A model generated the notes under the pieces. The model was not told the origin of the DNA, made no database searches, and was given only the letters and a program-made list of their open reading frames with translations. Positions 5,934-37,175 of a stretch of 37,513 nt of DNA are shown piece by piece (the first letter of the stretch is position 1; every line of letters starts with the position of its first letter). The position numbers and the translations under genes are program-made. The DNA is from Chrysochromulina tobinii. Its lineage: Eukaryota. The stretch lies in contig JWZX01002932.1 in NCBI GenBank assembly GCA_001275005.1, positions 1 through 37,513 on the forward strand. The letters run 5' to 3'.

Positions 5934-8900
5934 TCAAGAGGGGGGCGCAATGCTCACGCTTGTCGACCCGCCAGGGCTCAGTCGCACCACGTGACTGGTG
6001 CCCAGCAACCCTCGGCGGGCACATCCGATTGCGGCGGAAGTCCCAAGACAAGAAACGTGCATACGGCCCGCACTGACGGCTGGCGGGAACACCCGCTCTG
6101 AACGTAGAAAGAGCGTTGCCTCGGAGGATGGTGCAGCTTCGTGTCGCAGCAGCGCGAGCTTCACGGTGTTGGTGGAGCCCTCAAACGTGAGCTGCTCGAT
6201 CATCGCACCCTCGACGCTGATCGTGAGCCCAAGTCGCGCGATGTATGCGCGCCGACGGAGTGCGTCGCGGGGCGCAATCGTGACCCGACCACCACACACA
6301 TCCGAGACGCTCGCCTGGCTCTTCAGCGCCATCGGCCTGTGGCGAGCCGACTATGTCGCACAGCATGCACTCCCATCCACGCCACACCGAGCAGTCGAGG
6401 TATGCTGCGGCCGAGCGCCAGTAGCCGTACAAGCCAATGCCGTAGTCGCCCGAGTAGGCGTCACGCCGAAGCAACGAGGGGTCGCCATGCCACGCCATCG
6501 AGGCAGCTCCGGACGGATGGATGTTGGAGAGATGGCCGAGTAACGCCGCAGCACCCAGTCGTAGCAGATGCCCCCGCCCCGGGTAAGCGCGGTATGCGTC
6601 GAGGACCGCCACCGCGCTCAGCGTGCTTCCGTAGTGATGAAATTCACGCTCGTTGCCGAGGGAAGTCTTGCCATTGATCACATAGTCCCAATACCGCCGC
6701 GCTGAGCCTGAGTACGCCCAATGCGGGAGCACCGCCATGTACGCGAGCACAGCATCGACTGTCTTGTTTGCGGCCGCGTGATGGCCCTCACGGAGCAGCC
6801 AGGTGTGGATCTCTTCGTGCCCGGTCGAGTCCCAGGGGAACTCCGAGCCGTACGGGAACTCCATCGCCATCCACTTGCGCATCCGTGCTCCTCTCAAGTT
6901 GCGCATCTGGACCACAGCTGCCCTGAGCTCGCTCGCATTGGCCGTCTGTGCAGAGTCGGCAGCATGAGTTCCTTTAGGGCCGGCGGCACTTTTCGCCACA
7001 GTCCAAACGTCTGCGGCTGGCTGCCTCTCAGCTGCTTCGAGCTCGCGCTCCAGATCGGCGAGCAATCGCTCGAAGACGGAGCCCACCATCAGACCCCATT
7101 GTGAGGTGCCGCTGCCCTTTCCGCCGTGCACCCACATGGCCGCTGCCGTCCTCGCCGCCTGCAGCAGGTACCAGTGCCAGCTCGCGCGCGAGGCAAGCGG
7201 CGGCGAGAAGTGCCTCGCGAGCCGGTAGAGTGCCCAATAGACAGCAGTCACGTGCGGGTAGTTGTACGCGCGCCAGGTCTCCAGTGACCGATTCTCACTC
7301 CAGCACACCATCCAGTTGCAGCAGTTGGTCTTCTTGGCACACGCAGTCCAGCACTTGAGGCACTCGGCCGTCAGCGCCGGCGCGGCCGCACGCGCCCTCT
7401 CGGGCGCCGCCTGAAATTCGTCACTCCAGTAGACCATCGAGGCGCGCACTGCATAGTCTCGGCCCTGCAGAAACTGACGCCTGTCTCCATGCTCAGGCGT
7501 CCAAAGCGTCTCGTGCACGTACGCCTCGAGTTGCGCCACCTCCGAGGCCACGGGCGCCCCGAGCTGCTTGATGGCCATCGCGAGCGGAGCCGCTGCGCCT
7601 GCTTCGTCGGAGAGCCCATCCATAAAGATTCGAGGCTCGTCTAGGAGCGCTCCCGCGCCCACGCCCTCCCCTGATCGGTCGGCATCACTCCCCATGAAGG
7701 CGGGTGCGCGGTGCCAAGGGTCGGGCTTACCTGCCGGAAGCCAAGCCTGTCGACTGCCGTACGCGCCGTGCCGCTGCAGGAGCGAGCGTGCGTGCTCGAG
7801 GATGATCAAGTGCACAGTCTGCACGAGCGAGGGCGTGTGACGGCACCAGCCTGGCGACCCGAGGGCCGCGCTGTGATCACAGCCCTTTGCGTAGCGCAGC
7901 GTGAGCCTACAACGCCCAACGGCTTCGCGCAGCTTCAGAGTGATGACCTGCAACCGATGCCCCGACTCCCTCGTTGTCCCGTCGCATCCAACCCGCAGCG
8001 CGTCGTCGCCGCTGCCCATGTCAGCGCAGGAGATGAGGCGAGGGGCTTCCACGACGAAGTCGAGCGCCGACGGTGGGTCGGCACTGATGTTTACGAGAGC
8101 GAGCCAACTTCCCGACGGCAGCGATGGCAGCAGGACCTCAACTCGCGCCTGCATGCCCACGTGAAGCGAGGCAGCGGGCAGAGGAGTGGCGACGGGCATG
8201 CCGGCACCCACCAGCGCAGCAGGCACGTGGTCAACGGAAGCCGCAAGACGAAGCCGTACGCCATACGTAGCTGTTGCGCCGGGTAGCAAGGTGGCCTGGG
8301 TCGGAATGTTCCATGGATCTGGCTTGACCCCTCGATAATTCCACTCCTCTTGCGCATACGCTTTCGAGTGGAACACGATCTCGTAGAGTGCCTCGAACAT
8401 CCACCCCTTGCTGTCTCGCGACTCATCCTTCCGAAGTGGACGCCACGCCTCGAAGCCGGCAGCCTCTGGAGCGCCGTCACGGGCAGCCTCTGGCGCGCCG
8501 TCGCGGGCAGCCTCTGGAGCGCCATCCGCCGCGACGGCGCCGCGCGGCTGCGAAGACGGAAGCACGAGCAGGACTGGCCCACGACCGTTGGCACGTGTCA
8601 CCTGAACGTAGCCTGCGCCTGCCCCGAGGTACACCTCGGTGAAGCTGCAGTTGGCCGCCACATTGGCGAGGTGGCGCCCCGTGAACAGCTGGTTGAACGG
8701 CATCGAGAAGCCGAGCCCGCCGATCTGGAGCGCGAGATCGGCCGTATTTCGGAGGGACCAGCTGATGGACGCCTCGTCGCCCTTGGACGCGACGAGACGT
8801 GTGACGCGCAAGCCCGAGCCTCTGAGCACGTGCACTCGCGCAGCAGGACGTAACCCAGTGAGTGCAAAGGGGTACCATGAATGAATTCGTGCATCAGAGA

Positions 8901-9985
8901 CTGGCAGCATTGATGTTGAGAGGAGGGAGAGAGGAGGGAGGGATCTGCGTGTGGCACTGGAACGCGCACCGAGGCCGGAGCTGCGTGGTCACATCCATCG
9001 AAGCCGACGACCCATCACGAGACGCCACCAGCCCGCCGTCTGCGCCCGAGTCGGCGGGGTGAGGGGCGCTCGCCACGACCGTCGAAAAGCTAGTGTACCG
9101 AGCCTCGAGCGCGGCGGCGTCGGAGCGCGGCGCCGTTGGATCCATTGTTGGATCCAAGCGGCGCACGCGAATCGTCAGGTCTCCGAGGTGCTGGAAGCCG
9201 GGCGTGGAGCGATCGAGCGGCTGCGCCACGTTGCCCGAGCCCGACCAGTGTAGCTTGACGGACGGTTCGCGTAACGGGATAGTGTACGAGAAGCCTGATG
9301 TGGCGGCAGGGGTGACGACTTCGACCGTCCCGAGATCCGTTCGAAGTCCGATCAGGAAGGCGTCGCCGCGCCGCCCGCCCAGAGGCAGCAGCGATGAGCG
9401 AGTGAGTGCGGCACGATCGATGGCGAGGCCAGGGTCGAGCGCAGCCATTGGTGGCTCTGGTGGCTCGGGCGGCGGCGACGAACGTGGCGGTGGCGGCGGC
9501 GGAGGTGGCGGCGGCGGCGGCGGCGAGGCTCGCAGACGAGCGACGGTCTCGGCGACGCACGCGCTCAAAAGGCAAGCAGCCTCAGAGTCGATCCGCTGCA
9601 ACTGGTACGCGGCGCCACCATCGCCGACCTTTGCAAAGTGGTCCATCGTGATCTTCGGCTCGCTTGGAAGTGCCTCGACCATCGAGAAGTCGAGCGCACG
9701 CAGCTTGCACCCAGAGGTAGGGAATCGGATCCACGCCCGCATGCCTGCATCATCGATCCTCCAAACAGAGCCCCACTTTGAAACGAGGCATCCGGCACTG
9801 GCGATGGCTGCTGGTGGTGAATCAACGGCTGCAGCAACCGTGCTTATTGGAGGCGGTGGCGGAGCTGTGACTCGGGCTTGCTCGTTTGTGGCCGATTGGA
9901 GCATTTGAGTAGCCGGCTTCAACACATTCGCCCACAGCACGGCGGCGCCGACGATCAGCAACAGCACAAAGTGCCGGTTCCGCAT
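5934..9985 (-). CDS. DUF5695 family (putative glycoside hydrolase) with N-terminal signal anchor and Pro-rich stem; one intron and one apparent frameshift
   Basis: Motifs HLGDLTIR, IGGLGFSMPFN, GYVQVTRANGRGPVLLV, WRAYNYPHV, FPYGSEFPWDSTGHEE, PHWAYSGSARRYWD, EREFHHYGS and DAYSGDYG. Intron 8822-8969 joins ORFs 8894-9997 and 6181-8910 in frame. The C-terminal VTIAPRDALRRRAYIARLGL lies in a shifted frame (5934-6332). Confidence 0.8.
8822..8969 (-). other. Spliceosomal intron (148 nt)
   Basis: CCTCG|GTGCGC...GTGCTCAG|AGGC; the phase-2 junction gives LRPRGSGLRVTR. Confidence 0.7.
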
Positions 9986-17328: not shown

Positions 17329-17516
17329 TTTCTTCTCCCCGCGAGATTCTTGCTAAAAAAGGACATGAATTGAAACTGCCCCACGGAACCCTTCGCCACC
17401 AAAACGTCTAAAAACCTAGCCTTCTCTTGACTTGTCCTTGGCTCACTTGGCGACAGACTTGTGAGACCCGACCACATGGCGTGCAGAACCGTACAGTACA
17501 GTAAGTGCAACGTTCA

Positions 17517-18626
17517 ATGATTTTACCACCACGCCATTCGCAAGTGCTGCTCGCAATGGCCTCCGTGCTTCGCCGCCCGGCGCCGCTCGCATGTCAACCT
17601 CCGGTCGAGGAGGTGCTGCCTGGACAGATCACACTGGCAGAAAGTTCGGTAGGCCTTTATGAGGTATTGCGTTGTGTTCCTGAGGTAGCCAAAGGGCCTG
17701 CAACGCAGCGGGTCATCGTCCTCACGGGTAACCCGGGCCTCGCGGGCTTCTACGCCGATTTTGCCAGCGTGCTGTCTTCGGAGCTGCGTGCTGAGGTCGT
17801 GGTGCTCGGGCTTGCTGGCCACGTGTCGTGGTCTCTGCTAAGCGCCGCAGCCAGCCCATCGCAGCTTCGGCACCGCCCGCCGCACGGGCTCGACGACCAA
17901 GTCGCTCATTTAACTGAGGTTGTGGCGCCGCACTTGCAAGCGGCCGAGGAAGAGCGTCAGCCCGTGACGCTCATTGGCCACTCCATCGGTGCGTGGCTCG
18001 CGTTTCGTGTGTCCCAGCAGCTGGGATTGGCGCGCAATGGCGCATCGGCTGCGCCGCTCGTGCTGTTCCTGATGCCGTTCCTCGAAGAGAATATGAGCGA
18101 TCCGGCGTATGCCAGCAAGAGCCGCGCGCTCCGGCGCTTCCCGTTCGTCATTCCGCTCATCAGCCGCGTGGCGCCGCTCCTGCGGAGCGTCGTGCCGTCA
18201 CGCGTGCGTCGCTGGCTCCTGAGCTCACAAGTGGGGGGCATGGAGCGCGAGTACGTGCGCCTCGTCGAGGAGGGCATGCTGCATCGCGGCTGCATCGAGA
18301 ACTATCTTTTCCTGGCGAGGACAGAGATGTTCTCACACCAAGCGACGTTTGCGACGGAGGCGTTGCGTCCACTCGCAACAATAGGTAGGCTCGCCGCCCT
18401 GTACGTGAGTAGTGGGGACGAGTGGGCGCCGCTGGCCATGGAGCGCCGGCTGGCCACCGAGGCGGCGGTGCCCACGACTGTCGTGAGCCGCGACGAGGTG
18501 AGCCATGCCTTCTCGTGCAGATCACGCGAGACCAATGTGGTGGCGCAATGGGTCGTGGAGCGGGTCAACGAGGCATTTCCATTTGCCGACGCCGTTGCTC
18601 GGAGTCGGACGAGGAAGCTCCCTTAA
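17517..18626 (+). CDS. Lipid droplet-associated hydrolase-like alpha/beta hydrolase (LDAH/DUF2305)
   Basis: VIVLTGNPGLAGFYADF, LGLAGH, LDDQVAH, LIGHSIGAW (GxSxG nucleophile), DEWAP and SHAF. Confidence 0.85.
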   Translation: MILPPRHSQVLLAMASVLRRPAPLACQPPVEEVLPGQITLAESSVGLYEVLRCVPEVAKGPATQRVIVLTGNPGLAGFYADFASVLSSELRAEVVVLGLAGHVSWSLLSAAASPSQLRHRPPHGLDDQVAHLTEVVAPHLQAAEEERQPVTLIGHSIGAWLAFRVSQQLGLARNGASAAPLVLFLMPFLEENMSDPAYASKSRALRRFPFVIPLISRVAPLLRSVVPSRVRRWLLSSQVGGMEREYVRLVEEGMLHRGCIENYLFLARTEMFSHQATFATEALRPLATIGRLAALYVSSGDEWAPLAMERRLATEAAVPTTVVSRDEVSHAFSCRSRETNVVAQWVVERVNEAFPFADAVARSRTRKLP

Positions 18627-22561: not shown

Positions 22562-22791
22562 ACGGAGGCCATCTCGGTAGACGTGGAGGCCCCGCCGGGC
22601 CTCCAACCGGAACCGGAACGACGATGCCGGGGTAACAAGTTGAGCAGTGAATCAGCTGTTAACGTTTGTTTCCTGTTACTCGAGTCCCGCGGACGTCTTT
22701 AGACCATGCTCTCGAGGGTTTTTTCTCGGGCCCATTCAGCTCACAACAGGTGTCCGCGGGACCGAAGGGGCCGGGGACCCTCGATACAAGC

Positions 22792-23343
22792 TCACAACAA
22801 CGGTCCAGCCGCATACTCTGCCTTCATGGGTTGCTCCGCCTTTAGCGCCTCCAGTCGTCGGCGAAGCTCCTCAATCCCACGCCCAGATCCCGCTGGACTG
22901 AAAGCCGCAGCGGAAGGCGGCGCGTGATCCTTCGCACTACGAGCATGGCTGCCGTCGTTTGCCGGCCGTTGATTAGCACTCAAACTCAGCACTCCAGCAG
23001 CCTCCGATGGCGCAGCCATGGTGGCGATCACGTCCGGCCCCACCGAGGCAACGGCAGAATCGGGGCGCTCGCCTCGGGTCGCATAAGACCACTCGTCGGC
23101 CGACCACTCGCTGGCGCTCGAGGAACTCTCGCTCGTGCAGGTGCGAGCAGAGCAAGGCGTCAGCGGCTTGTCGTCCATCGCGCTTGTCCTCACGCGTCGC
23201 GGCGCATGCTCGATGGCCTGCTGCTTGAGCTGTCGGAGTTGATGCACGTGCGAGCGCGCCGAGCCGGGGTGCACGTGCGAGCGCCAGCCGCCATCGTGGG
23301 CGGCGGCAGTCACGCCTCTCTTGATACTCAAGTCCGGCAACAT
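22792..23343 (-). CDS. Hypothetical protein
   Basis: Open frame from MLPDLSIK with an amphipathic C-terminal helix IEELRRRLEALK. No domain recognised. Confidence 0.35.
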   Translation of the reverse strand: MLPDLSIKRGVTAAAHDGGWRSHVHPGSARSHVHQLRQLKQQAIEHAPRRVRTSAMDDKPLTPCSARTCTSESSSSASEWSADEWSYATRGERPDSAVASVGPDVIATMAAPSEAAGVLSLSANQRPANDGSHARSAKDHAPPSAAAFSPAGSGRGIEELRRRLEALKAEQPMKAEYAAGPLL

Positions 23344-23486
23344 CGATGCGAAAAGGTAAAACCGCCTTGTGGGGAAAATGGCGCTCGCAGAATGTGAAAC
23401 CACTTTCACTTGTTTCACAAATTTTTGAGGCCTGAAACCGAGCAGAGTTCCTGATCTGAATTGAATTGGCTTGACTTGACTTATTA

Positions 23487-23647
23487 CTGAGTCGGCCGCT
23501 GATTCGGTCGTCTCGCGGTCGCTCGGGTGCCGTGCCCCGACCCCCGTGCGGGTTGGGAACTTGGGATGGTTGTGAGGTTCGTCTGTGTCACTGTGTGATG
23601 CGTGTGCCCGTGTGTGTCCCGGCTCCTCCGGTGTCTTTTTACCGGTA
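23487..23647 (+). repeat. Dispersed non-coding repeat family, copy 3
   Basis: CTGAGTCGGCCGC...GTGCGGGTTG...GGATGGTTGTGAGGTTCGTCTGTG...CCCGTGTGTGTCCCGGCTCCTCCGGTGTCTTTTTACCGGTA is collinear with 434-605. Confidence 0.85.
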
Positions 23648-23753: not shown

Positions 23754-24824
23754 ATGCTCTCCGGCCGCGTGTGCGAGTGGGTTGCACGTAAGAATGATCA
23801 CGCGAATGACCCATTTGCCAATCTCGGTGAGCTGCCATCGCCGGCTGCCCAGGGGATTGGAGCGGCAACTGCGTCTGCAGCAGGCACGATTGTTGCAAAG
23901 TCTGATCGCATCCAGAAGGCAAACAACAGAGTATACATACCCGTGCAGGATTGCAACGCTTCCCTTTTCATACTGTCTGAAAAGCGATGGCGATGAGCGC
24001 GCGGAGAACAGCTTTGGTACCACGTCGCTGGCATACGAGATGCGGCGTGGTGCTACCCTGAGCCTGCGCCTGGCAGGGAAAACTTGCGGAATCACGTCAC
24101 CTTCGCCACTGGCAAGGGCATCCTCGTGAAAGAGCATGGCGACGCGATACATGACAGCGCCGCGCCAAACAACCCGTTTGAGGCGCGGCGCTCGAGACCC
24201 ATCGTCGTCGCTGGCTTCGGCACAGCTCTGCAGGCAGTTTCTCCCTCGAAGCCGCCGCCGATGACGCCATTGGCAGCGCTGCCGCCATCACTGCGTGACG
24301 GATCTGCCAGCGAAGGCACGTTGCTCACATTTGATCCGACGCGCTTCTCGTCGCGTTTTCTGCGCCTCGAGACCCCCACACGTGTGGCATGCCATACCAA
24401 CTGCAGCCAGTCTACTCAGGGCACAGCATTCCTCACTCCCGCCATCCGCGGCGGCGAGGCCGTGACGCTGAGGATCCGGTGCAATGCCAAGCCGGGCAGG
24501 ATGCGCTACTTTATAGGCTGCGCACCGGCGCCCTTCGACGTGGACGCTGGTCAGGCCGCGGTCCAGGCGTCGGGCTACTCGCTTGAGAACCTGAAGGCTG
24601 GGCCCAACTGCCCGGCTCAGCCGTGCGGCGGCTCGGCGCCGCCGTGCTTCCATACGGGTAGCGTGGTCACAATGTGGATCGACCTCCAGACCTCGCCTGG
24701 CAGCGTGCGCTGGGAGGTTGACACCACTGGCGTGGTGCACACCGTCAGAGTCGACCCGAATACGCCCGAGCTGTTCGCCTTTGTGAGCTTGTACAATCGC
24801 GAGGCAGTCTTCGAGCTCATGTAA
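23754..24824 (+). CDS. DUF427 + B30.2/SPRY-like protein with in-frame TGA (23994-23996) at the conserved Cys: candidate selenoprotein
   Basis: ORFs 23685-23996 and 24084-24824 share a frame, separated only by one TGA: IVAKSDRIQKANNRVYIPVQDCNASLFILSEKRWR*ARGEQLWYHVAGIRDAAWCYPEPAPGRENLRNHVTFATGKG (DUF427 pattern). C-terminal FHTGSVVTMWIDL...LFAFVSLY is SPRY-like. The start may be 23685. Confidence 0.75.
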
Positions 24825-25131
24825 GGTCGGGTGAGAAAGCGTCTGGCCCCGTCCGCCCCCGGTCGCGACGCCCCTCTACCCGTTTACTTTACTTTATAAG
24901 TGCTGCCGTGGTAGTAGTACATAGGTACCGGTACGCAAGGGATCCGATAAATAACACGATGACTCCACGCCACACTCCATAGCGCATAGGCACCGCAGTG
25001 CGTCTGCGCTCTCAACAGTCACGTCACCCGGCACACAGGCGGCCCCAGTGACTTATCCCCCCGGAGCAACGGAGATGATGAGGGAGGTCATACATTCGAG
25101 TTGCCAGTGGCCCGCAGCCCTGCAGGTGCAG

Positions 25132-25319
25132 TATGCCCCCGTGGGTTCGAGGCCGACACTGGTACAGCAGACGTTTCCCTATGCCCCCGTGGGTTCGAGG
25201 CCGCCACCCGACACTCTCAGTCTCTCACGCCTGAGCCGGAAGTTCCGGCAGGACGCCGCCGTGACCGATCCAACCGAGTCCGAGACTTGCGTTCGGTGGC
25301 ATAGGGAAACGTCTGCTGT
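25132..25319. repeat. 24-bp direct repeat (25132-25155, 25180-25203) enclosing an inverted copy (25164-25185) of 25298-25319
   Basis: TATGCCCCCGTGGGTTCGAGGCCG occurs twice. ACAGCAGACGTTTCCCTATGCC is the exact reverse complement of GGCATAGGGAAACGTCTGCTGT. Confidence 0.9.
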
Positions 25320-28300
25320 GCCCTGTGTCGCCGAGTGTGGGGAGAGGGCTGCTTGAGAGCGGCGGCCGCGGGCCGCGCGGCGAGACAGGCTGCGAATGCG
25401 ACCGCTCCGACAATGCGGAGCTGCGCGGCGGCCGTCGCGGCTGCAGCTGGAGCCGAGGGCTTCGCATGCCACCCCGAGAGACGCGCGACGAAGACGGAGA
25501 CGCGGGCACCGATTGCGCGCCGAATGGGGCCGGGGCGGTGGCGGGGCCGGTGGCGATGGCGGTGGCGGGGGCGTAATCGGGCCTCGAAGTAGCGGAGGCC
25601 GTGGACGCATACGACGTGTCTACGAGCGTGTACCCCGTCCAAGATCCTACACTTCGGCGGGGGGGGTCGTGCTCGTAGACGCTCTCGTAGACGTTGCCGA
25701 GGGGATCACGCCACACAGCGGATGTCGTCACGCTCGAGCCTACAGGCGAGGGCGGGCGCGTGAACTCTGACGCGTGATCTCTGTGCGAGTCTGACGCGGC
25801 GTCTCGCGATTCTGACTTGGTGCTTGGTCGGAAGAGCGTCCCGTCTGGTCCCACAGCGCCATCGTACAGCGTGGTGTCGGTGGTGTATTGGCTCTTGACA
25901 TGGCGCTGCTGCCAGCGTGGCTCGTACCAACGCGGCTCGCTCGTCTCGGTCGAAGTTCCGGGCAATCTCCATGCAGCTCGGTCCTCTGCGTGTTGCATCC
26001 ACTCGGGCACGGGCGGGCCCAAGCCTCGAGGAGAAGACGAGTTTCGTGCTGGAGGGACTGGAAGCGAAGGCGGCACCGAGGGTGGATTGCGTGGCGGGCG
26101 CGCGACGCCCGGGCAGCCGGCCCCGCTGATCGGCAGCTTGATCGGCAGCGGCCGCATCAGGGGCATAGCGGGGCCCAGCTGCGAGCGGTGAGGGTCGAGG
26201 ACTGTGGGAATCGACGGGGGCGGCGAGCGCCGACCGGGGCCGCGTGGGGCAATGGCCTGGAACCGGCCCTGTCGCCCTACCGTAGGCGTCACCCATGCTG
26301 TCGTGAACTGATTCGCTACGTCCGCCGGGGTCAGCTGTTCGATCGCCTCCGCGGCGCGCGCGTCAAACTCGCGGGAGTAGACGTCCTCCTTGTAGCTCGC
26401 ACTCGATCGGATTGCATTGTACCACGAGCCGCCGGCCGCCGAGGAAGTGCGCGCGCTCTGCACGGCACTCTCGCACAGCACCGCTGATGACGTGAGGGAC
26501 GCGCTCATGCCAAACGAGACGTCGTGGGTCCCCATGTGCGACCTCTCGCTGCCGCCGTAGCCGTAGCCAGAGCCCTCAACAAAGGATGTCGTGTTGGAGC
26601 TTGGTCTCGTGGGTGGTGGCGGGCGCCGCTCGTCAAGGAAGGCAAGGTACTGGGTGATGGGGGATGGGACGACGCCGAGCGAGTCGCTCGGCGGGGAGGG
26701 CTCGATGGGGATGGGCGAGCCACGCCGCGGTAGCAGGTTCATGGGTGCAGCCGCTATGAGCATTTTGGCATGCCGCGGACCACCGCCGCCAGCGGCCACC
26801 GCGCTCGCGCCGCTGCTGTTGCTCGACTGGAGAAGCTCGGGAGCACCGCCCTCGAGCGCTGCATCGGCCGCAGTAGCGCCGGCTGAGTCGTGGGCGCCCT
26901 CGACGCGCGCGCCCACCTCACGCTGAGAATGATCAGTCCTCCCGATCGCAAAGGCGCGCGGCGTCATGCGATGCACGTGCTCGTTGCAGTCCTTGGCTCC
27001 GACGGCCAGCTTAAAGTACGGCTGGCTCAGCTGTAGCGACGGGTGACGTTCGAACCAGCTCGAGTCCATCACGTGTGGTGCGACGGCGAGGAAGCCATCG
27101 CCAAACTGCACAAACTCATCGCCATGCAGGTGGCGCACGCCTATGCGCTCGAGCTGCACCTTGGTGAAGTCGCGCACGCCGTAGCCGAGCGCCGAGATAA
27201 GCAGCTTGTTGCGCAGCTCGCGCCCGGTGGTTGGGCGCATCTCGATACCAGTCCAATTCAGGGTCTCGTAGCGCTGCCAGTACTCATCCATGGGCGACGG
27301 TACGACGACTCTCGCGCGGCGGGGGGGCATGGCCGACATGTTGGTGTGCGACGAGCGGGTAGAGCAAGCACTGCGCCCTCGCAATGGCACATGGTTGCCG
27401 TCCAGGGCGAATTCGACAGATGGGGGGCTCTGGGGACGGGATGCCTCTACCCGCGACTGGGGACGGGATGCCTCTACCCGCGACTGGGGACGGGATGCCT
27501 CCACCCGCGAGCCGACCTCACCCGACCCCTCGCCTACAGCCTCGTGACTCAAGCGAGGCTGCATGTGGATCGTGCGGCGGTTCGACTGGCGAGAGGGTAG
27601 GCGGGATGATGACGTCGAGCCCTCCTTAGACGACGTGTGATCTACGGGCGGCATGTCAGACGGCGGCGGCTCGGGCCGAGGCCCACCGCGCGACGGCGGT
27701 GGGCTGAGCGTGCTGCCTCGCGAGCTACCGCGCGAGTCAGGCCGTGAAGAGCCCGGCCGCGGGGGGGTGCGCGAGCGTTGCGGGCGCGATGACGCGGGTC
27801 GTGAGGTGGGAGTCTTCGGCCTTCCGACCACCATCGGCCAGTCGGTCGCGGGGGCAGGAGCCGAAGCCTCCTCAACCGCATCTGCAGTGGCAAGGCGTAT
27901 TAAGGTGAAGGTTGCCTGCTGCCCCTCGCTGCTGCCGTCGGTGAACATCTTGACGGGCTTCTCGCGTGTGATCTCGTTGTCGTTGACGGCGATGACCCGG
28001 TCGCCCAGGGCGACCTTACGCATCGTCCGAGGCGCATCGTCCGTCTTGATGCCCGTCACCACGTTTTCGCTGTCCACAGTCAACCCAAAGCCGTCCGGGT
28101 AGCGCCAAGTGAGAGTGATCTTGAAGGGCCGTCCGGCGCCCGGCAGCTCCAATTTTGAAGGATCAAAGATGCCCTCACCACCCGTATAACTTTCCAAGAA
28201 GGAGCGTCTTTTCCCGGTCAGTGGGCGCGAGGTCAACATCAGCAACTCGACGGGAGCAGAGGCTTCGGCTTCGGCAGCAGGGGCGGAAGAGGCGCTTGGC

Positions 28301-29982
28301 TCGCATCGACTGTCGCCTTCTCCAACCACGCCACCTGCGCCGACACCTCTGCTACTCCCGGGGCGTGGCTTCCCTAGAATTGGCTGCTCCAAGCCCTCAG
28401 GCCACCAATCGTCGTAGTCGTCATCGGCGCGCGTAGCCTTCGCCTCGGCTCCCGGGGCGGCATCCTTCACGGGCGCGAGGGACTCGGAGTCCTCGGCGCC
28501 GCTCTTTTGGAGCCCTCCATGGTGCCGTTCGACAAAGGCTCGCACCTCCGTCTCCAGGTGGAAAGCATCGATCCCCGTATGCTTATGGCAGAGCTGCAGT
28601 ATAAACTCGTGCCGGTCCGGAAGTGGCATCGCGACAAACCGCCCCCAGTCGTCCTCTGTTAATGAATCAAGCACATCCTGCAGCTTGCCCGGTAGGCCGT
28701 CGCGCAGCGCCCAAAACTGAAGCCGGCCGCGCGCGCCCGGCGTGCCGCCTTCCCTATGCCTCACTTCTCGTTCCACCTTAACTGCGGCCACCGTTCTTTT
28801 GGCGAGCCTGCCGCGGCTAATATTCTGAATCTTCTGCGCGGCCTGCTGTCGTTCCTCCTTCTCCTTGCGCGCCTTCTTGCCTCGCACCTTGGCCTGCACC
28901 TTGCTCGCCGCCGCGCGCTTCTGCTGGCTGCTCCCCACGCTCTTGGCAGCCTTCTGGCGGTAGTTAACCTCCTCCTCTTCCTCCTCCTCCTCCTCCACCT
29001 CAGCCTTTTGGCGCTTTGCCTTTGGTGGCGGTGGCGTCACCTCCGCCGTACCAGTCGGTGCCGGTGGTGGAGGCGGCGGCGCCTCCTCCTCCTCTTCATC
29101 AAAAGTCTCGTCAAACACGCAAGCGGCCTCATCCTTCCAGACAAAGGTCATCATGATGACGTTGCCGTTGGCGTCCGTCACCGGGTACGATACGGTCACT
29201 GTTCCAAAGAGCATCCACAGGAAGGCCGCGTACTCATGCCCGCTGATTCCCGCCGTCCACGTGTCTGCAAGCTCAAAGAAGGCGTCCATAAAGCGCTTGC
29301 GTGAGAGGGTGGGCGCGCCTTTCGAGTCGTTCTTCCAGTCCTCGGCAATCGTCTTCTCCGCATCCACTGGGTCGAAGTTCTTGATCATGACGCGGTAGAT
29401 GCGGCGCAGCATGATTGCATGCCCCTCCTGGTGTAGCTCGTTAGCATTTGGATCGCCTCCCGAGTGCAAGCTGCGTTGTGCGGCCTCCCAGAAAGCTTGC
29501 AATGCCTCGAGCACGCGCCGGTCGTGCCGGAGCTTCTGCCGCTCACGCATCTTCTCTTCCGTGGCCAGGCTGGCGTCGCCCTGCTGCCACATCTCGAGCT
29601 TCTCAAGATCCGCCTCCGACTCTACGACGGTTGTGACTGTGCCGCTCGCCATGCTCTCCTCTTCGGCGGTAAGCGCCTTCTTCACCTTTGTATCGAAGCC
29701 CAAGGAGCGCAGGATGGCTTCACCGTGTTTCGCACCCGCGCGAAGCTTGGCCATGTACCGGTCGTGGTTTGAGCTTTTTGTTTCACTCTTGCCCCAGGCG
29801 GCCAAGGCGCCCTTTCCTCCAAGCGCGACGCTAGACGTCAGCCGGCGCTTCATCTTAGCGAGCGACCGTGCAAAGTTTGAGACCTTATGCCATCGCAGGC
29901 CCGCCTTTGATACTGGGCGAGGGCCAGCACCTGAAGCAGCAGTGGCGGCGGCAGTCGCACCCTGTTGGCGTGCTGGACCCAT
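25225..29982 (-). CDS. Large protein with EF-hand-like region, two IQ motifs, PDZ domain and long low-complexity C-terminus
   Basis: Uninterrupted ~1585-aa frame. TLSRKRFMDAFFELADTWT..EYAAFLWMLF; IQ motifs AASKVQAKVRGKKARK and AAQKIQNISRGRLAKR; PDZ GFGLTVDSENVVTGI...VALGDRVIAVNDNEI. In-frame introns or upstream exons cannot be excluded. Confidence 0.75.
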   Translation of the reverse strand: MGPARQQGATAAATAASGAGPRPVSKAGLRWHKVSNFARSLAKMKRRLTSSVALGGKGALAAWGKSETKSSNHDRYMAKLRAGAKHGEAILRSLGFDTKVKKALTAEEESMASGTVTTVVESEADLEKLEMWQQGDASLATEEKMRERQKLRHDRRVLEALQAFWEAAQRSLHSGGDPNANELHQEGHAIMLRRIYRVMIKNFDPVDAEKTIAEDWKNDSKGAPTLSRKRFMDAFFELADTWTAGISGHEYAAFLWMLFGTVTVSYPVTDANGNVIMMTFVWKDEAACVFDETFDEEEEEAPPPPPPAPTGTAEVTPPPPKAKRQKAEVEEEEEEEEEVNYRQKAAKSVGSSQQKRAAASKVQAKVRGKKARKEKEERQQAAQKIQNISRGRLAKRTVAAVKVEREVRHREGGTPGARGRLQFWALRDGLPGKLQDVLDSLTEDDWGRFVAMPLPDRHEFILQLCHKHTGIDAFHLETEVRAFVERHHGGLQKSGAEDSESLAPVKDAAPGAEAKATRADDDYDDWWPEGLEQPILGKPRPGSSRGVGAGGVVGEGDSRCEPSASSAPAAEAEASAPVELLMLTSRPLTGKRRSFLESYTGGEGIFDPSKLELPGAGRPFKITLTWRYPDGFGLTVDSENVVTGIKTDDAPRTMRKVALGDRVIAVNDNEITREKPVKMFTDGSSEGQQATFTLIRLATADAVEEASAPAPATDWPMVVGRPKTPTSRPASSRPQRSRTPPRPGSSRPDSRGSSRGSTLSPPPSRGGPRPEPPPSDMPPVDHTSSKEGSTSSSRLPSRQSNRRTIHMQPRLSHEAVGEGSGEVGSRVEASRPQSRVEASRPQSRVEASRPQSPPSVEFALDGNHVPLRGRSACSTRSSHTNMSAMPPRRARVVVPSPMDEYWQRYETLNWTGIEMRPTTGRELRNKLLISALGYGVRDFTKVQLERIGVRHLHGDEFVQFGDGFLAVAPHVMDSSWFERHPSLQLSQPYFKLAVGAKDCNEHVHRMTPRAFAIGRTDHSQREVGARVEGAHDSAGATAADAALEGGAPELLQSSNSSGASAVAAGGGGPRHAKMLIAAAPMNLLPRRGSPIPIEPSPPSDSLGVVPSPITQYLAFLDERRPPPPTRPSSNTTSFVEGSGYGYGGSERSHMGTHDVSFGMSASLTSSAVLCESAVQSARTSSAAGGSWYNAIRSSASYKEDVYSREFDARAAEAIEQLTPADVANQFTTAWVTPTVGRQGRFQAIAPRGPGRRSPPPSIPTVLDPHRSQLGPAMPLMRPLPIKLPISGAGCPGVARPPRNPPSVPPSLPVPPARNSSSPRGLGPPVPEWMQHAEDRAAWRLPGTSTETSEPRWYEPRWQQRHVKSQYTTDTTLYDGAVGPDGTLFRPSTKSESRDAASDSHRDHASEFTRPPSPVGSSVTTSAVWRDPLGNVYESVYEHDPPRRSVGSWTGYTLVDTSYASTASATSRPDYAPATAIATGPATAPAPFGAQSVPASPSSSRVSRGGMRSPRLQLQPRRPPRSSALSERSHSQPVSPRGPRPPLSSSPLPTLGDTGHSRRFPMPPNASLGLGWIGHGGVLPELPAQA
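27430..27511 (-). repeat. Coding tandem repeat, 27-bp unit x3 (SRVEASRPQ)
   Basis: GGGACGGGATGCCTCTACCCGCGACTG repeated three times on the + strand. Confidence 0.85.
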
Positions 29983-30175
29983 CCTTCGGTGTGCAAGCCT
30001 TTCCACACGAAAAGATCTGCGGTGTCACCTCTGACGAGCCGATTGGAGGCAAACCTCTTGCCACTGCTGAAGTCTCGTCGAGCGTACTGCCGCCCGTGTC
30101 GTCCGCGTGGTCTTGTCGTTGCGGACGCGGCTCACCGTCGCAAAATAGAACGACAAGGCGACTTCAAAGAAACGC

Positions 30176-31780: not shown

Positions 31781-33119
31781 CTACCCTACTCCAGGTCCAC
31801 GCGGCACCTCAGCGGCGTCGCTACTGCTGGCCTTCCCGGCCACCCTGGCATTGATCGCCTCCACCTCGGCCGCGCGCTCCACTGCGGCCTGCTTCTCCTT
31901 CTTGAGCCTCTTCGTCGACGCAGCCTTGAGCAGCGAGTTGATCTGATCGGCTTCAGCTTTCGTCTTACGGAGCTTTTCAAGAGTCCGAGCTCCCTCCTTC
32001 TCAGCTGCGGCCATCTTGGTGCCCTCGATCATTACAGCTGGATCCATGGCCGTCCAATTGATCTTCTCGCCCGTCGCAGCTGCCTTCTCCATCAGATCTG
32101 CCGCCTGCTGCCGCGCCGCCAGCCGCGCCACTTCCAGTTCGGCGGCTGCCTCCGCAGATTTAGCAGCTTTTTGGGCTGCGGCCCTCGCAGCATCGGCTTG
32201 AGCCGCCTCTTGGGACGTCCTTTCAACGGCCAGCGCCTCGGTAGCCGCCACAGCGGCGGTCACGCGCGCTTCGTCGTCAGCACGCTCCACCGCTTTGTCA
32301 GCACGCTGCACCGTTTCGTCAGCACGCTCCACCGCTTTGTCAGCACGCTGTACCGTTTCGTCATCACGCTGCACCGCTGCCCGCTCCGCTGCCGCGCGCT
32401 CCACAAGTGCCTGTTCTGCCGCTGCGAGCTCTGCTGCTGCCTTCTCTGCCACCTCTTGCTCCGCCGTGACCTGCTGCACAGCTACTCTCTCTGCAGCCGC
32501 TCGCTCCGCTAGCGCTCGTTCCGTCGCCGCCTTCTCTGCTGCCGCAGCCATCTCTGCTGCCGCCGCCATCTCTGCCGCCGCAGTCTTCTCTGCCGTCGCC
32601 GCCTTCGCTGCCGCCGCCTTCTCTGCTGCCACCTTCTCTGCTGCCACCTTCTCCGCTGCCACCTTCTCTGCTGCCGCATCCTCTGCTGCAGCATCCTCTG
32701 CTGCCGCCTGCCGCGCGGCGGCCCTCTCTGCCGTAATGCGCTCGGTCTCCTGCCTCTCCGCCTGCTGCTTCTCCGCAGCAGCCCATCGCGCCTCCTGCTC
32801 TGCTGCCTCCACGCCCATGGCTGCTTTCGCCGCCTCCATCGCAGCAGCGCTCAAGTTGGGAGGCACATACTCTCTGGGAACGTATGGCTCAGCACGGCTC
32901 GGCGTCTGTGTCGGAGCTGCCGAGGGAGGAGCAGACGGAGGAGGCGCACATGCGGGAGGCGCGACCAGCGAGGCCTCCGCATCAACGTCCACCTCAGCTA
33001 CCTCAGCTGCAGCCTTGGCCTCCGCCGCCGCCTCGGGTACGGGCGCCGCCTCGGGCGCGGGGGCCGGCGCAAAGGCCAAAGCAGCTGCTTCGGCCGCCAC
33101 AGTATCGGTCGCCGCCGCC

Positions 33120-33199
<80 letters not shown>

Positions 33200-36100
33200 C
33201 ACCGCCGCCGCCTGTGCAACATCTGCCGCCCGCACCTGTGCTTGAGCAGCGACCCGCGCCTCAGCCTCAGCCGCCGCCTTCATCTCGGCAACTTTGGCCC
33301 TATCAGCGTTGCCCCTCTCAATGGCTTGCAGCCTCGTGGCTGCCTCCTGCTGTGCACTCGCCTCCGCCGCCTCCGCCGCTGCTACTGCCGCCTGCGCCGC
33401 CTGCACCTCCGCGGCCGCCTTCTGCGCTGCCAACCGCGCGTCAGCCTCTTTTTGAGCCTTGAGCGCGGCAAGTTTGGCCCTATCCTTCTTGCCCCTCTCG
33501 ATAGCCTGCAGCTTCGTGGCTGCCTCCGCCTCCGCTGCAACCCTCTCCGCCTCCGCTGCAGCCCTCTGAGCTGCGGCTGCCTCCGCTGCGGCCCTCTGCA
33601 CCTGCGCTGAAATCCTCTCAGCCTCGGCCGCCGCAGCTGCCGCCGCCTCGGCGAGGATTGCTTTCACGACGGCCTCCTCCTCATCGGCTTCCTGCAGGAT
33701 TGCCGCCTCGTCGGCGTCCTCCTTCGCACGGTGCGCCGCCGCCCTGTCGTCGGCTGCGAGTCGTGCATCCACACGGCGCTTCGCCTCCAACTTGGCCTGT
33801 TCTAGGAGCTCCTGCTCCTGCTTCTCCCTTTCCAATCGCTCCGTGAGCAGCTGCTCTTCCTTCCGGTGGGCGCTCGCCTGCGCCGCAGCTTTCGCTGCCG
33901 CCGCCGCCGCCGCCACTTCCGCCGCCTCCGCCGCCGCTGCTGCCTCTTCCGCCGCCGCCAAAGCCGCCAAAGCCGCCTCCGCCTCCGCCTCCGCCTCAGC
34001 GATCGCCTTGGTTGCAGCTTCCGCTCTGCGATGCGAGTCCACATAACGAGCCCGAGTAGCGTTACCACGCTGCGTGGCCTGGAGCATGGTGGCCGCCTCG
34101 ACCTCAGCAGCCGCACGCTCCTCGGCGCTGAGCTCGGTGATGGGTTGCCTCCGAGGCAGGGCCTCGGCGCTGGGCTCGCTGACGGACTGCGCGACGCCCC
34201 AAACCTCTTCGTACGTGGTTTCCCCCACCTCGGGCGGTGGGGGCGGCAATGCTGCTATGGGGGTTGAGGCGTTGGCGGCCGCAACGGCTGGCGGGGAGTC
34301 GGAAGACAAGGGTGCGCGTGGGGGCGGCGTCTCCTCGATAGGCTCCAGCGCCGCCGGCACTCGCAGCGATCCTGACAGTTCCGGCGGCTCCGTAACTGCA
34401 CGGACACTCGCAGCGATCACCCCCTCCACCACGGCCTCTCCGGGGGTTTGAGGCCTGCTGACGGCCCGGAGACTCGCCGCGATCACCCCCTCCACCACAA
34501 CCTCCGCAGGCGTTTTGGGCCTTTCAGCGGTCACTGCCTGGGCACTCGCAGCGATACCCCCCTCCACGGTCTCGGCAGGGGATGGGGGCCTGCCGCCGGT
34601 CAGGACGCTCGCAGCAATCCCCTCCTCCACGGGAGCGTACGGCTCGGGCAGATCTTGGCACAAATCTCGGACGCTCGCAGCGATCCCCTCCACGGGAGCG
34701 GACGGCTCGGGCAGATCTTGGCACAAATCTCGGACGCTCGCAGCAATCCCCTCCTCCACGGGAGCGGACGGCTCGGGCGGATTTTTGTACTCCACAGGAG
34801 CATAGGGCTCGGTGGGGGACATGGCGGGGGAAGAAGGCGCGGGGGTCTGTGCCGCCGACGGTGGAGCAGATGGAGGGGAGCCAGGGGGCGCGCCGATCGG
34901 CACGGCCTCGGCGCCAGAGCCCATCTCAACGATCGGCGCGGCTTCCGCGCCCGTCACGGCACCCGCGTTGTGATGGGCACCCGCGTCCTCATCCGGAACA
35001 GCATCGGCCGTCTCATCTGGCTGCACCTCGCCCCCCTCCTCCACCGCCTCCTCGTCCGCCTCCGCCACCGCTGACGCCTCGCGCGACACTGTCGCCCTTG
35101 CAACGGGCGCAGCCGACGGCGCAAATGCAAGCGCGGCGTCATTGATGGACGCCAAATCAATTTTGAAACTGATATTCACCTGTGGGGAGAGTCGAGCGCC
35201 GTGGTGAGCACTTGCATGCCAACGGCCACGTGGACGCCCAATCAATTTTGAAACTGATATTCACCTGGATCGGCGCGGGCGCCGCCGCTTCGTCGGCCAA
35301 CCCCTCAGCCACCGCCCCGCGCACGCGACGGTCCACAGCCGCTGAGGGTGCAAAGACGGGCGCAAAGTAGTCTGCCACGTCCTCTGCCACCGGTTGGACT
35401 ATGGCTAGCGACTTCGTCGGGCGCGCGTCGAGCTGCACGGCGACGGGCGGGGCGGCGGCGGGCGCAGTTTCTCTCAGGCTCTTGGTCCGTATAGGCGGCA
35501 GCCCTTGTTCCTTGCTGGCGAGGTGATGCAACTGACGCTCGAGGGGAGTCGGCGGTCCCTCAGATGAGCGAGTGAGTGGCACACGTCCATCTGCTTCCTT
35601 GAACGTCTTCGGAGGTTGCTGCCCATAGCATAGCTGCGGATGTCTACGAGTCACGCCGTGGTGAGCACTTGCATGCGGCGGCTTTGGACGGCTTCGGATC
35701 GGCGAGAGGCCCCCCGCACTTCGGCCAGGGCTGGAACCGCGGCTGTGGCTCGGGCTGGAGCCTCTCGATCGGCGGTTAGGGCTCGACCCGATCTCCCCGA
35801 TCTCCCTCGAGATCTCCCCGTCGTCCGGCGGCGGGCGCGCCCGCGGCTGCAGCTGGCTAAGCGGCGTTGCGAGCTGGACAAGCTCATCCGTCGTGGGCGG
35901 AGGCAGTATCGGGCGCCGGGCGGGCGGGGGCACGAAGGGGGTGATGCAAGATTTGGGCTCGGGCGCCACGTGACGCTTGGCGAGCTCGACGGCAGATCGC
36001 GCTCTCGGCCGATCTCGGTCGATCTCGATGGCGGAGCTCCGGCTGAGGCCGCCGTTCTCTACGCTCACGCCGCCGCCGCTGCGACTTGCGCCTCCGTCCG

Positions 36101-37073
36101 CACCACCCCCGGCGCCGCCCTGGCTGCTGAGCTCTTGCAGCCGCATCAGGCGAGACAGGTTCGATTGCCGCCGAGTTGCCCACAGGCGTCGCTCCGCCTG
36201 TAACCGTCGAAGGTCGTGCTGCTCCTGCGACGCCGAGCTGCGTGCCGAGTTGGACATTCGGCTGGAGCGTGGCGTGGCCGAGGTGGCGGTCGAAGTCTCT
36301 CCAGTCCATGGCGAGCCCGGGGGTGGGTGCGGCGTGAGCGCTGGCGGGAGCGCCGTGGCGAGCGCCGAGGCGTCGTGGCGAGCGCTCGGCTCGGCGGACG
36401 CGAGGGCTCCTCGGGGCGAGTGCATTGGCAGCATGCGCGGCCGAAATGTCGCCCTCAGCTGCTGGTTGAGCTCCGCAAAATCGATGGAGCCCGACTCATT
36501 GGCATCCAACGACGTGAAGAGCTTGTCGACGACGGAGGCCGACGCCTCGTAGCCGAGGAACGAGAAGGCGCGCTCAAACTCATTGCGGGTGACGACGCCG
36601 TTGCCGTCCAGGTCCCATGACGTGAACAGGTCGATGACGCGCACGCGATTCACGCGCAGGAGCTCCTTGAGCTGCTCGGCCGCGGTCGCGTCGTCCACAG
36701 CGTCGAGCTTGATCGTTGAGTCAAGTGCCTGTCCTCGCTCGCCGTGTGCCGCCTGGCGTAGCGAGAAGTTGTAGTTGTGGTGGTTCAGGCCTTTCTTGCC
36801 GTCATTCTGCCCAGCCTCCTCCAAATGGCGTTGGTGGTAGGTTTTGGGGTGGTAGAAGCCCGGTTTGCCCGCAATCGGCTCGAGCTCAGCTAGAGCTGCC
36901 TCCCGCTCCCTTACTCTCTGGTCATGGGTCAGCTGTTTTCTCACGATGCGCGTCTCCACCTCCTTTGCTTTGACCGCGGTCTTGATGCGCTCCCACCGCT
37001 GCAACGCCGAAAGTTGATACTCCGCAGCGCGGCTCGAGGGCAGGGCGCCAAGCCCATGTGAAGTTCTCCACAT
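31781..37073 (-). CDS. Giant protein with EF-hand pair, three IQ-like motifs and Ala/Glu-rich repetitive coiled coil; intron 35180-35264 (possible second intron ending 35634)
   Basis: EF-hand loops [13 protein letters not shown] and [15 protein letters not shown]-like [22 protein letters not shown] and [11 protein letters not shown]. The 85-nt intron joins ORF 35157-37088 to ORF 31781-35245 ([12 protein letters not shown]). Confidence 0.8.
33108..33200 (-). repeat. Coding tandem repeat, 15-bp unit (EAAAA)n
   Basis: GCCGCTGCCTCGGCC repeated about 5-6 times. Confidence 0.85.
34400..34800 (-). repeat. Coding tandem repeats, ~60-63-bp units ([22 protein letters not shown])
   Basis: Near-identical repeated units are visible in both DNA and translation. 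Confidence 0.8.
35180..35264 (-). other. Intron = copy of downstream exon start + shared 3' cassette
   Basis: CAG|GTGAATATCAGTTTCAAAATTGATTGGGCGTCCA...GCATGCAAGTGCTCACCACGGCGCTCGACTCTCCCCACAG|GTGAATATCAGTTTCAAAATTGATTTGGCGTCCA. 35146-35182 matches 35231-35267 at 36/37. Confidence 0.9.
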
Positions 37074-37175
37074 GTGCGCGACGAGCAAACTTGACGCGCT
37101 CTCGCTGAACTGATCTGAACTTGGATCTGAACGTCCGCGCGGCGAGCTCGTGTCGAACTCAACGTCTCAAGTCTA

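Follow-up and report, generated by a model that had tools for sequence, protein, structure and literature searches.

The window analysed here is a 37,513-nt stretch of a Chrysochromulina tobinii contig (GenBank assembly GCA_001275005.1, contig JWZX01002932.1), which carries at 23754..24824 (+) a single-exon coding sequence interrupted by one in-frame TGA. The Pfam content of the window is eukaryotic-looking, with EF-hand and lipid-droplet hydrolase matches as well as weak WW and IQ matches. A DUF5695 protein is encoded at 6181-8910 (-), a lipid-droplet hydrolase, whose relatives are fused to EF-hands, at 17505-18626 (+), and an EF-hand protein at 35157-37088 (-). Two long ORFs, 25225-30006 (-) and 31781-35245 (-), gave weak IQ, Hint or PDZ matches only. 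For a neighbouring gene, the sole named relative is from Haptolina brevifila, at 35% identity. The region 25132-25322, where the convergent ORF 25225-30006 ends, contains a pair of 28-nt direct repeats separated by 48 nt as well as a 29-nt inverted repeat; a strong GC and AT skew marks 32001-34000, and no tRNA genes were found in the window.

The frame under study opens with an ATG at 23754 and closes with a TAA at 24822-24824, giving 356 codons with a single UGA to be read through, at 23994-23996 (+), codon 81. An earlier sequence-only reading had described this frame and its splitting by the ORF track, and both were borne out on re-reading: the list of open reading frames shows two pieces broken at the TGA. 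The predicted selenocysteine (Sec81) stands at the end of a strand formed by residues 72-81, within the motif K-R-W-R-U-A-R-G-E-Q. The start codon is backed by a segment that is conserved right after the Met in relatives (E8-W9..R12-K13..D19-P20) and which forms part of family-specific N-terminal helices, residues 1-26 (23754..23831, +), where E8, W9, R12, K13, D19 and P20 are the conserved positions.

Downstream of these helices, residues of about 37-128 (23862..24137, +) form a DUF427 beta-tent domain. The Pfam DUF427 model (PF04248) matches residues 40-119 with an E-value of 1.4e-10 and 41.3 bits, against a cut-off of 22.1. Modelled alone, the N-terminal domain reaches a pLDDT of 93.7 (in both structure models, Cys was substituted for Sec). 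In the ranking of known folds, the DUF427 structure 3DJM comes first (Z 14.8, rmsd 2.4, 97 residues aligned), followed by yippee/Mis18 (Z 8.7), cereblon (5.6) and MsrB1 (5.5). The AlphaFold model of the full protein, computed from a 35-row alignment, shows two confident domains joined by a linker, with a mean pLDDT of 84.8 and a pTM of 0.60, the latter too low to place Sec81 relative to C213. The linker, residues 132-184 (24147..24305, +), has a pLDDT under 50, is poorly conserved in protein sequence and is probably disordered; as described below, it carries a SECIS-like hairpin. Residues of about 190-356 (24321..24821, +) are predicted to form a SPRY/B30.2-like beta-sandwich, in which C213, N216, K246, R249 and M250 are invariant in 33/33 rows. 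The match of this half to the TRIM67 PRYSPRY domain (VIA Z 18.9, rmsd 2.4, 152 aligned) was obtained with the predicted model, and Foldseek likewise returned a SPRY match, with an E-value of 1.2e-8. The Pfam SPRY model gave no match at E-values up to 0.1. The DUF427-SPRY fusion suggested earlier, for which HMMER had been named as the check, is thus confirmed by Pfam for DUF427 and by predicted fold for SPRY, but not by a Pfam SPRY match.

The same reading had placed the TGA on the Cys of the DUF427 CPxKG motif, with one residue missing just after it. Alignment to 3DJM reproduces this register, residue 81 (entered as C) standing opposite the Cys, one residue being missing afterwards, and counting from the conserved Ser also puts the TGA on the Cys and makes the loop shorter by one residue. 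In the model, residue 81 closes a strand ahead of a tight turn. When all 20 residues were substituted at the site, Cys was the top scorer in 11/11 family sequences, 3.7-4.1 bits above the next, and Trp fell outside the top six. Cys also occupies the position in 24 of the 29 matches that span the site, all of them canonical DUF427 proteins. The exact register is less firm when HMMER is given an X at position 81: the gap then falls on the Cys column instead, so that sequence alone leaves its position ambiguous. A tree, which carries a long-branch warning, sets the 10 family rows on one side of a branch and 18 Cys-type DUF427 rows on the other, with support of 100/99.

Seven runs were aligned to the window, one DNA-type and six RNA. 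The TGA was bridged without a joint by the DNA-type run, which is possibly the window's own source, and by four of the six RNA runs (X12, X13, X15 and X16), in evidence that consists of assembled contigs and in which DNA carry-over into the RNA libraries is possible; X14 and X17 have gaps at the site. The X12 contig covers 23735-24549 with zero differences from the window, and that of X13, a poly(A) library, covers 23756-24594 with one difference, outside the TGA. In X12, X13 and X15 the TGA and the linker hairpin lie on one piece; X16 bridges the TGA. An intron over the TGA was rejected, no joints having been listed in any of the seven runs. Of the checks that had been proposed, retention of the TGA in the transcript thus came out positive in the RNA contigs, and the DNA-type run shows TGA at the site rather than TGC, TGT or CGA. 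Upstream of the gene, RNA-library contigs from four runs cover 22687-23349, overlapping an ORF at 22792-23418 (-) that has no Pfam match over the cut-off. Just upstream, 23607-23647 is matched by many unrelated RNA contigs, with a summed depth of 50-380, and is probably a dispersed repeat.

Twenty metagenome loci related to the gene were fetched, of which 14 reach the TGA site and six do not. The TGA is kept in all 14, at GC contents of 27-64%, and is never replaced by TAA or TAG. Four of the 14 match the window at 99-100% identity; once these, and two pairs of near-identical loci, had been merged, nine distinct sequences remained, the full-length ones sharing 31-76% identity. Between positions -6 and +8 around the TGA, the residues S, K, R, A, R, G, E, Q, W and Y are invariant in 10/10 rows, yet nine of these ten use two to five codons each, the Trp at +7 being always TGG and the site always TGA. 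Selection on both sides of the TGA is thus of the coding type. Five of the remaining loci (L016-L020) are short coding pieces amid CA-rich repeats in which the Sec site is uncovered; they probably belong to an intron-rich member.

Among protein databases, named members of the family were found, in 30 proteins looked up, from Tetraselmis striata, Pelagophyceae sp., Baffinella frigidus, Amoebophrya sp., Polykrikos kofoidii and Polarella glacialis, a spread over green algae, pelagophytes, cryptophytes and dinoflagellates. No viral homologue was found; one exact pattern of the family motif gave 0 matches in GTDB species genomes, and three family proteins matched 0 NCBIfam families. None of 30 protein-database matches reads through the TGA site, and 32 of 121 representative matches end at the residue just before it. 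Public Tetraselmis and Pelagophyceae gene models (P0094, P0149 and P0142) halt at or skip the Sec site, and one Tetraselmis gene has two models, the first halting at the site and the second skipping it, a pair of the kind that gene finders would be expected to produce on meeting a Sec codon. No Cys form of the DUF427-SPRY family was present among the 121 matches. The proposed comparison of orthologues for TGA against TGC or TGT therefore favours selenocysteine, in that relatives keep TGA and the family yielded no Cys form.

That the databases contain split pieces only could also be taken to mean that the TGA is a true stop, the locus being a pseudogene or specifying a peptide of 80 residues and, separately, a SPRY protein started from a later ATG. 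A bacterial DUF427 locus (L021:601-630, -), the sole one returned by one exact, narrow pattern, lends this reading some weight, since a lone TGA stands there precisely on the Cys and its genome yielded no SelA, nor any SelB above the cut-off. We regard the L021 TGA as a nonsense change, an error or the product of an incomplete genome and do not count it as support for a bacterial Sec-containing DUF427. In the family itself, a stop at this position would sever one compact domain (pLDDT 93.7) at a hairpin tip, and the five residues +1 to +5, ahead of any start codon, do not vary while their codons change synonymously. Termination at codon 81 is accordingly a most improbable account of the locus.

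In a second alternative, a standard amino acid is inserted at the UGA, which would be either a leaky stop or a codon reassigned to Trp or Cys, with the linker hairpin acting as a generic stimulator of readthrough. One of the 121 protein matches, P0082, does read through with Trp at the site, and one of the named relatives comes from Amoebophrya, a genus in which reassigned stops have been reported in one strain (PMC6394959). P0082 is nevertheless near-identical to L013, which has TGA, and its Trp is probably the result of a code-4 gene call, on a 578-nt contig from an AT-rich lineage. The site is never TAA or TAG in the 14 loci, the nearby Trp is without exception TGG, and UGA serves as the terminal stop in 4/10 of these genes, from which it follows that UGA is not reassigned there. 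Moreover, Cys suits the column best and Trp ranks outside the top six, and the hairpin, which is 157-382 nt distant from the UGA, has a core, spacing and AA that are specific to SECIS elements. Readthrough of this kind is very unlikely. We infer that the UGA at codon 81 is very probably read as selenocysteine. The central claim of the sequence-only reading, Sec at the DUF427 cysteine position, therefore stands, with TGA in 14/14 covering loci and none of the contrary findings it had named being encountered.

If UGA 81 specifies Sec, a SECIS is to be expected. A bacterial-type Sec hairpin right after the UGA was sought, and no common fold was seen within 70 nt in the 9/9 sequences. A eukaryotic-type SECIS is, in contrast, predicted inside the coding sequence, at 24139..24211 (+), residues of about 129-153, consisting of helix I, an AUGA core at 24151, an 11-bp helix II, an AAA at 24167 and a 3' core half at 24193-24196. 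Counted from the core, the hairpin begins at 24151, 157 nt 3' of the UGA, with the AAA unpaired at position 12. Among 18 matches to a loose pattern on the two strands of the window, this hairpin is the most stable (-25.5 against -14.0 for the next, a gap of 11 kcal/mol). Its fold z is -4.9, and 0/200 shuffles were as good. Rfam RF00031 (SECIS_1) aligns to 24141-24206 with 33.7 bits, just below the cut-off of 35, and with an E-value of 1.8e-5 on a 161-nt stretch that was picked after the loose scan, which becomes about 4e-3 when adjusted to the length of the window. A scan of 14 whole loci gave no Rfam SECIS match, but that scan missed the linker hairpin too. The element has the RUGA/GA core, the two helices, the unpaired AA and the same strand as the gene, all features of a SECIS; what it lacks is the canonical placement in the 3' UTR, the best element being in the coding linker. 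L002, L003 and X13 differ from the window at one coding position only, 24205, which is the bulged base of helix I; as a single site, this is anecdotal.

Counterparts of this hairpin, with the RUGA..GA core, were found in the linkers of 8/9 distinct sequences, in one codon phase and 157-358 nt after the UGA, and the element is retained down to 31% protein identity. An AA or AG lies at positions 12-15 in seven of the eight hairpins; L010 has no AA. With pairing counted ungapped from the core halves, a MAFFT alignment of the eight hairpins being unusable, 71/88 cells pair, compared with 30-48 when the halves are slid, and positions 1-3 show three to five pair types each; these first columns are partly circular, as the hairpins were selected by a filter requiring closing pairs, and the linkers are related sequences. 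The number of shuffles per 1000 that match the quality of each hairpin was 0, 0, 0, 7, 8, 16, 67 and 141, so that six of eight are equalled by at most 16/1000, those of L009 (67) and L010 (141) being weak. The L009 and L011 hairpins have a fold z of -0.7, and the L006 and L008 linker elements gave no SECIS family match in Rfam. The one sequence without a hairpin, L005, has lost about 31 codons covering it relative to the near-identical P0012 and is shifted in frame (L005:480-500), on a contig that finishes in a run of A; the loss is explained either by a stable hairpin having been skipped in copying or assembly or by the allele being broken. At the protein level, the peptide footprint of the core, [HNDY][DE]x4[KNR], is present in 25 of 42 linkers, where 2000 shuffles gave 3.2 on average and 11 at most, a statistic that ignores kinship; the set derives from the 43 of 142 proteins with a measurable linker, one near-duplicate having been removed.

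The search for a SECIS in the 3' UTR that the sequence-only reading had recommended yielded only a weak hairpin there, the SECIS-shaped element being found in the coding linker, where a 3' UTR search would miss it. The weak candidate, at 25041..25089 (+), is a kink-turn-like hairpin with RUGA/GA core lying 224 nt 3' of the stop; its upper stem has a dG of -5.8, its fold z is -0.2, and it is probably not a working element. It could be argued that the gene depends on this conventional 3' UTR SECIS, the hairpin of the linker being left over from the past or playing an auxiliary part. Only 2/300 shuffles yield such a hairpin with an unpaired AA, and the L008 UTR also offers a candidate. The L008 candidate is, however, equalled by 35/300 shuffles, Rfam gives no SECIS match in the UTR of either the window or L008, and no UTR candidates were found in L005, L006, L009, L012 or L014, of which 98-600 nt were present. 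The linker element, by comparison, is kept at 31% protein identity. RNA contigs of five runs finish between 24849 and 24955, short of 25041-25089, contigs being unable to show mRNA ends. A working UTR element thus seems improbable, and we judge the internal linker hairpin to be very probably the functional SECIS. The locus as a whole is, with much the same confidence, best explained by a UGA in the DUF427 Cys column that works together with a coding-linker SECIS to give a selenocysteine-containing DUF427-SPRY protein.

The mechanism that would follow can be outlined from known eukaryotic Sec biology. The linker hairpin likely acts by recruiting Sec machinery of the eukaryotic type, making UGA 81 a likely selenocysteine codon: SBP2 and eEFSec would bind the hairpin core ahead of the ribosome, and Sec would be inserted. 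The ribosome would then translate through the hairpin and melt it, and output is expected to be low and self-limiting, because each ribosome must melt the internal hairpin. The linker would put up with such a structure since little amino-acid sequence appears to be required there, and UGA would be barred in frame from either core half, which agrees with the fixed phase. As to origin, a DUF427 selenoprotein was possibly fused to a SPRY gene, its old 3' UTR becoming the linker, which would fit both the low-complexity linker and the Tetraselmis model that ends after DUF427.

The binding groove of beta-tent proteins is made by the beta4-beta5 loop together with two aromatic residues on strand 6 (PMC4287342). 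Residues W99-x-Y101 lie on the strand that matches groove strand 6, by strand order. Sec81, on the beta4-beta5 hairpin beside this strand, might accordingly be a nucleophile at the groove rim, which is the weakest part of the proposal. The invariant K77, R78 and R83 could stabilise the selenolate or hold a negatively charged substrate, the SPRY domain would present a protein target, and the invariant C213 (33/33 rows) is a candidate resolving thiol. On balance, the predicted function towards which we lean is that of a selenol-dependent oxidoreductase in which SPRY binds the target and C213 possibly serves as the resolving thiol. Given Sec insertion, a non-redox role, in metal or electrophile capture or in a groove binding nucleic acid or phosphate, is a real but lesser possibility: Sec81 has no CxxU-type partner nearby, binding is the role of most beta-tent relatives (such as yippee, cereblon and the C-terminal domain of RIG-I), and the site is strongly basic. 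Known selenoproteins, on the other hand, are mainly oxidoreductases (PMC1802603), the missing Cys form among 121 matches suggests a catalytic need for selenium, and C213 does not vary.

No published report of a DUF427 selenoprotein was found in the literature searched. The main text of the algal selenoproteome survey has 0 occurrences of DUF and SPRY, a term search of the Archaeplastida survey gives 0 for DUF, and DUF427 is absent from the DUF passages of a 2026 prokaryotic review. The family could already have been catalogued under a different name, for instance among the "Hypo" families (PMC7539508) or the three hypothetical proteins of Ostreococcus that are given by coordinates alone (228-558 nt). 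Eukaryotic SECIS are held to be 3' UTR elements, with those in coding regions inefficient (PMC1802603); Seblastian demands a SECIS 3' of the coding sequence (PMC3753652), and an earlier survey discarded candidates that lay inside the coding sequence of proteins already known (PMC2375036). We consider it probable that this gene belongs to an ancient, cross-supergroup family of cellular selenoproteins, outside the published inventories, that relies on a SECIS in a disordered coding linker, possibly a captured 3' UTR.

If so, a class of selenoproteins has been hidden by the filter that places SECIS after the stop, and Sec insertion may be subject to a translation-coupled limit. An internal SECIS kept across about 30% protein identity would provide a natural test of SBP2 against elongating ribosomes, and a re-screening of protist genomes minus the position filter is suggested. 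The family would also add a non-thioredoxin fold to plankton selenoproteomes, point to the residue of DUF427 that is likely reactive, and explain why several sequenced algae have broken gene models.

Comparison with known systems shows both kinship and departure. The SPRY/B30.2 domains of TRIM67, RanBP9 and Ash2L share the fold of residues 190-356 (Z 16-19), whereas the protein described here is 9-17% identical to them, has no Pfam SPRY match and no RING or SOCS partner, and carries its own invariant patch. With Cys-type DUF427 proteins (PF04248, PDB 3DJM) it has in common the fold (Z 14.8), the motifs Y-x-P and W-x-Y-P and a Sec in the CPxKG Cys column; it differs in a U-A-R-G loop one residue shorter, the basic K-R-W-R that precedes it, the added N-terminal helices and the SPRY fusion. 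MsrB (selenoprotein R) belongs to the same beta-tent fold class (3MAO, Z 5.5, rmsd 3.3, 83 aligned; PMC4287342), a likeness at the level of fold only. The present protein has no zinc motif and no Pfam MsrB match, its strand 114-117 has neither Cys nor Sec, and its reactive residue would be on the beta4-beta5 hairpin, whereas that of MsrB is at strand beta7, a mapping made by strand order and not by superposition.

The precedents found for a coding-region SECIS in eukaryotic systems are viral or single-gene only. In addition to canarypox GPx4, there is a reverse-strand ciliate prediction in a gene that has no Sec (PMC7409322). Horseshoe crab SelW resembles the present gene in being cellular and eukaryotic and in having a SECIS predicted within its ORF, but it is a single sequence and has a second SECIS in its 3' UTR (PMC2397514). 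The nearest parallel in arrangement is GPx4 of fowlpox virus, which has a eukaryotic-type SECIS within the ORF, 3' of the UGA, and for which Mix, Lobanov and Gladyshev reported that the coding-region element supports Sec insertion, at much lower expression (PMC1802603). Fowlpox GPx4 is, however, one viral gene encoding a thioredoxin-fold protein, whereas the gene described here is cellular, belongs to a family found across several protist supergroups and carries its element in a single codon phase within a domain linker.
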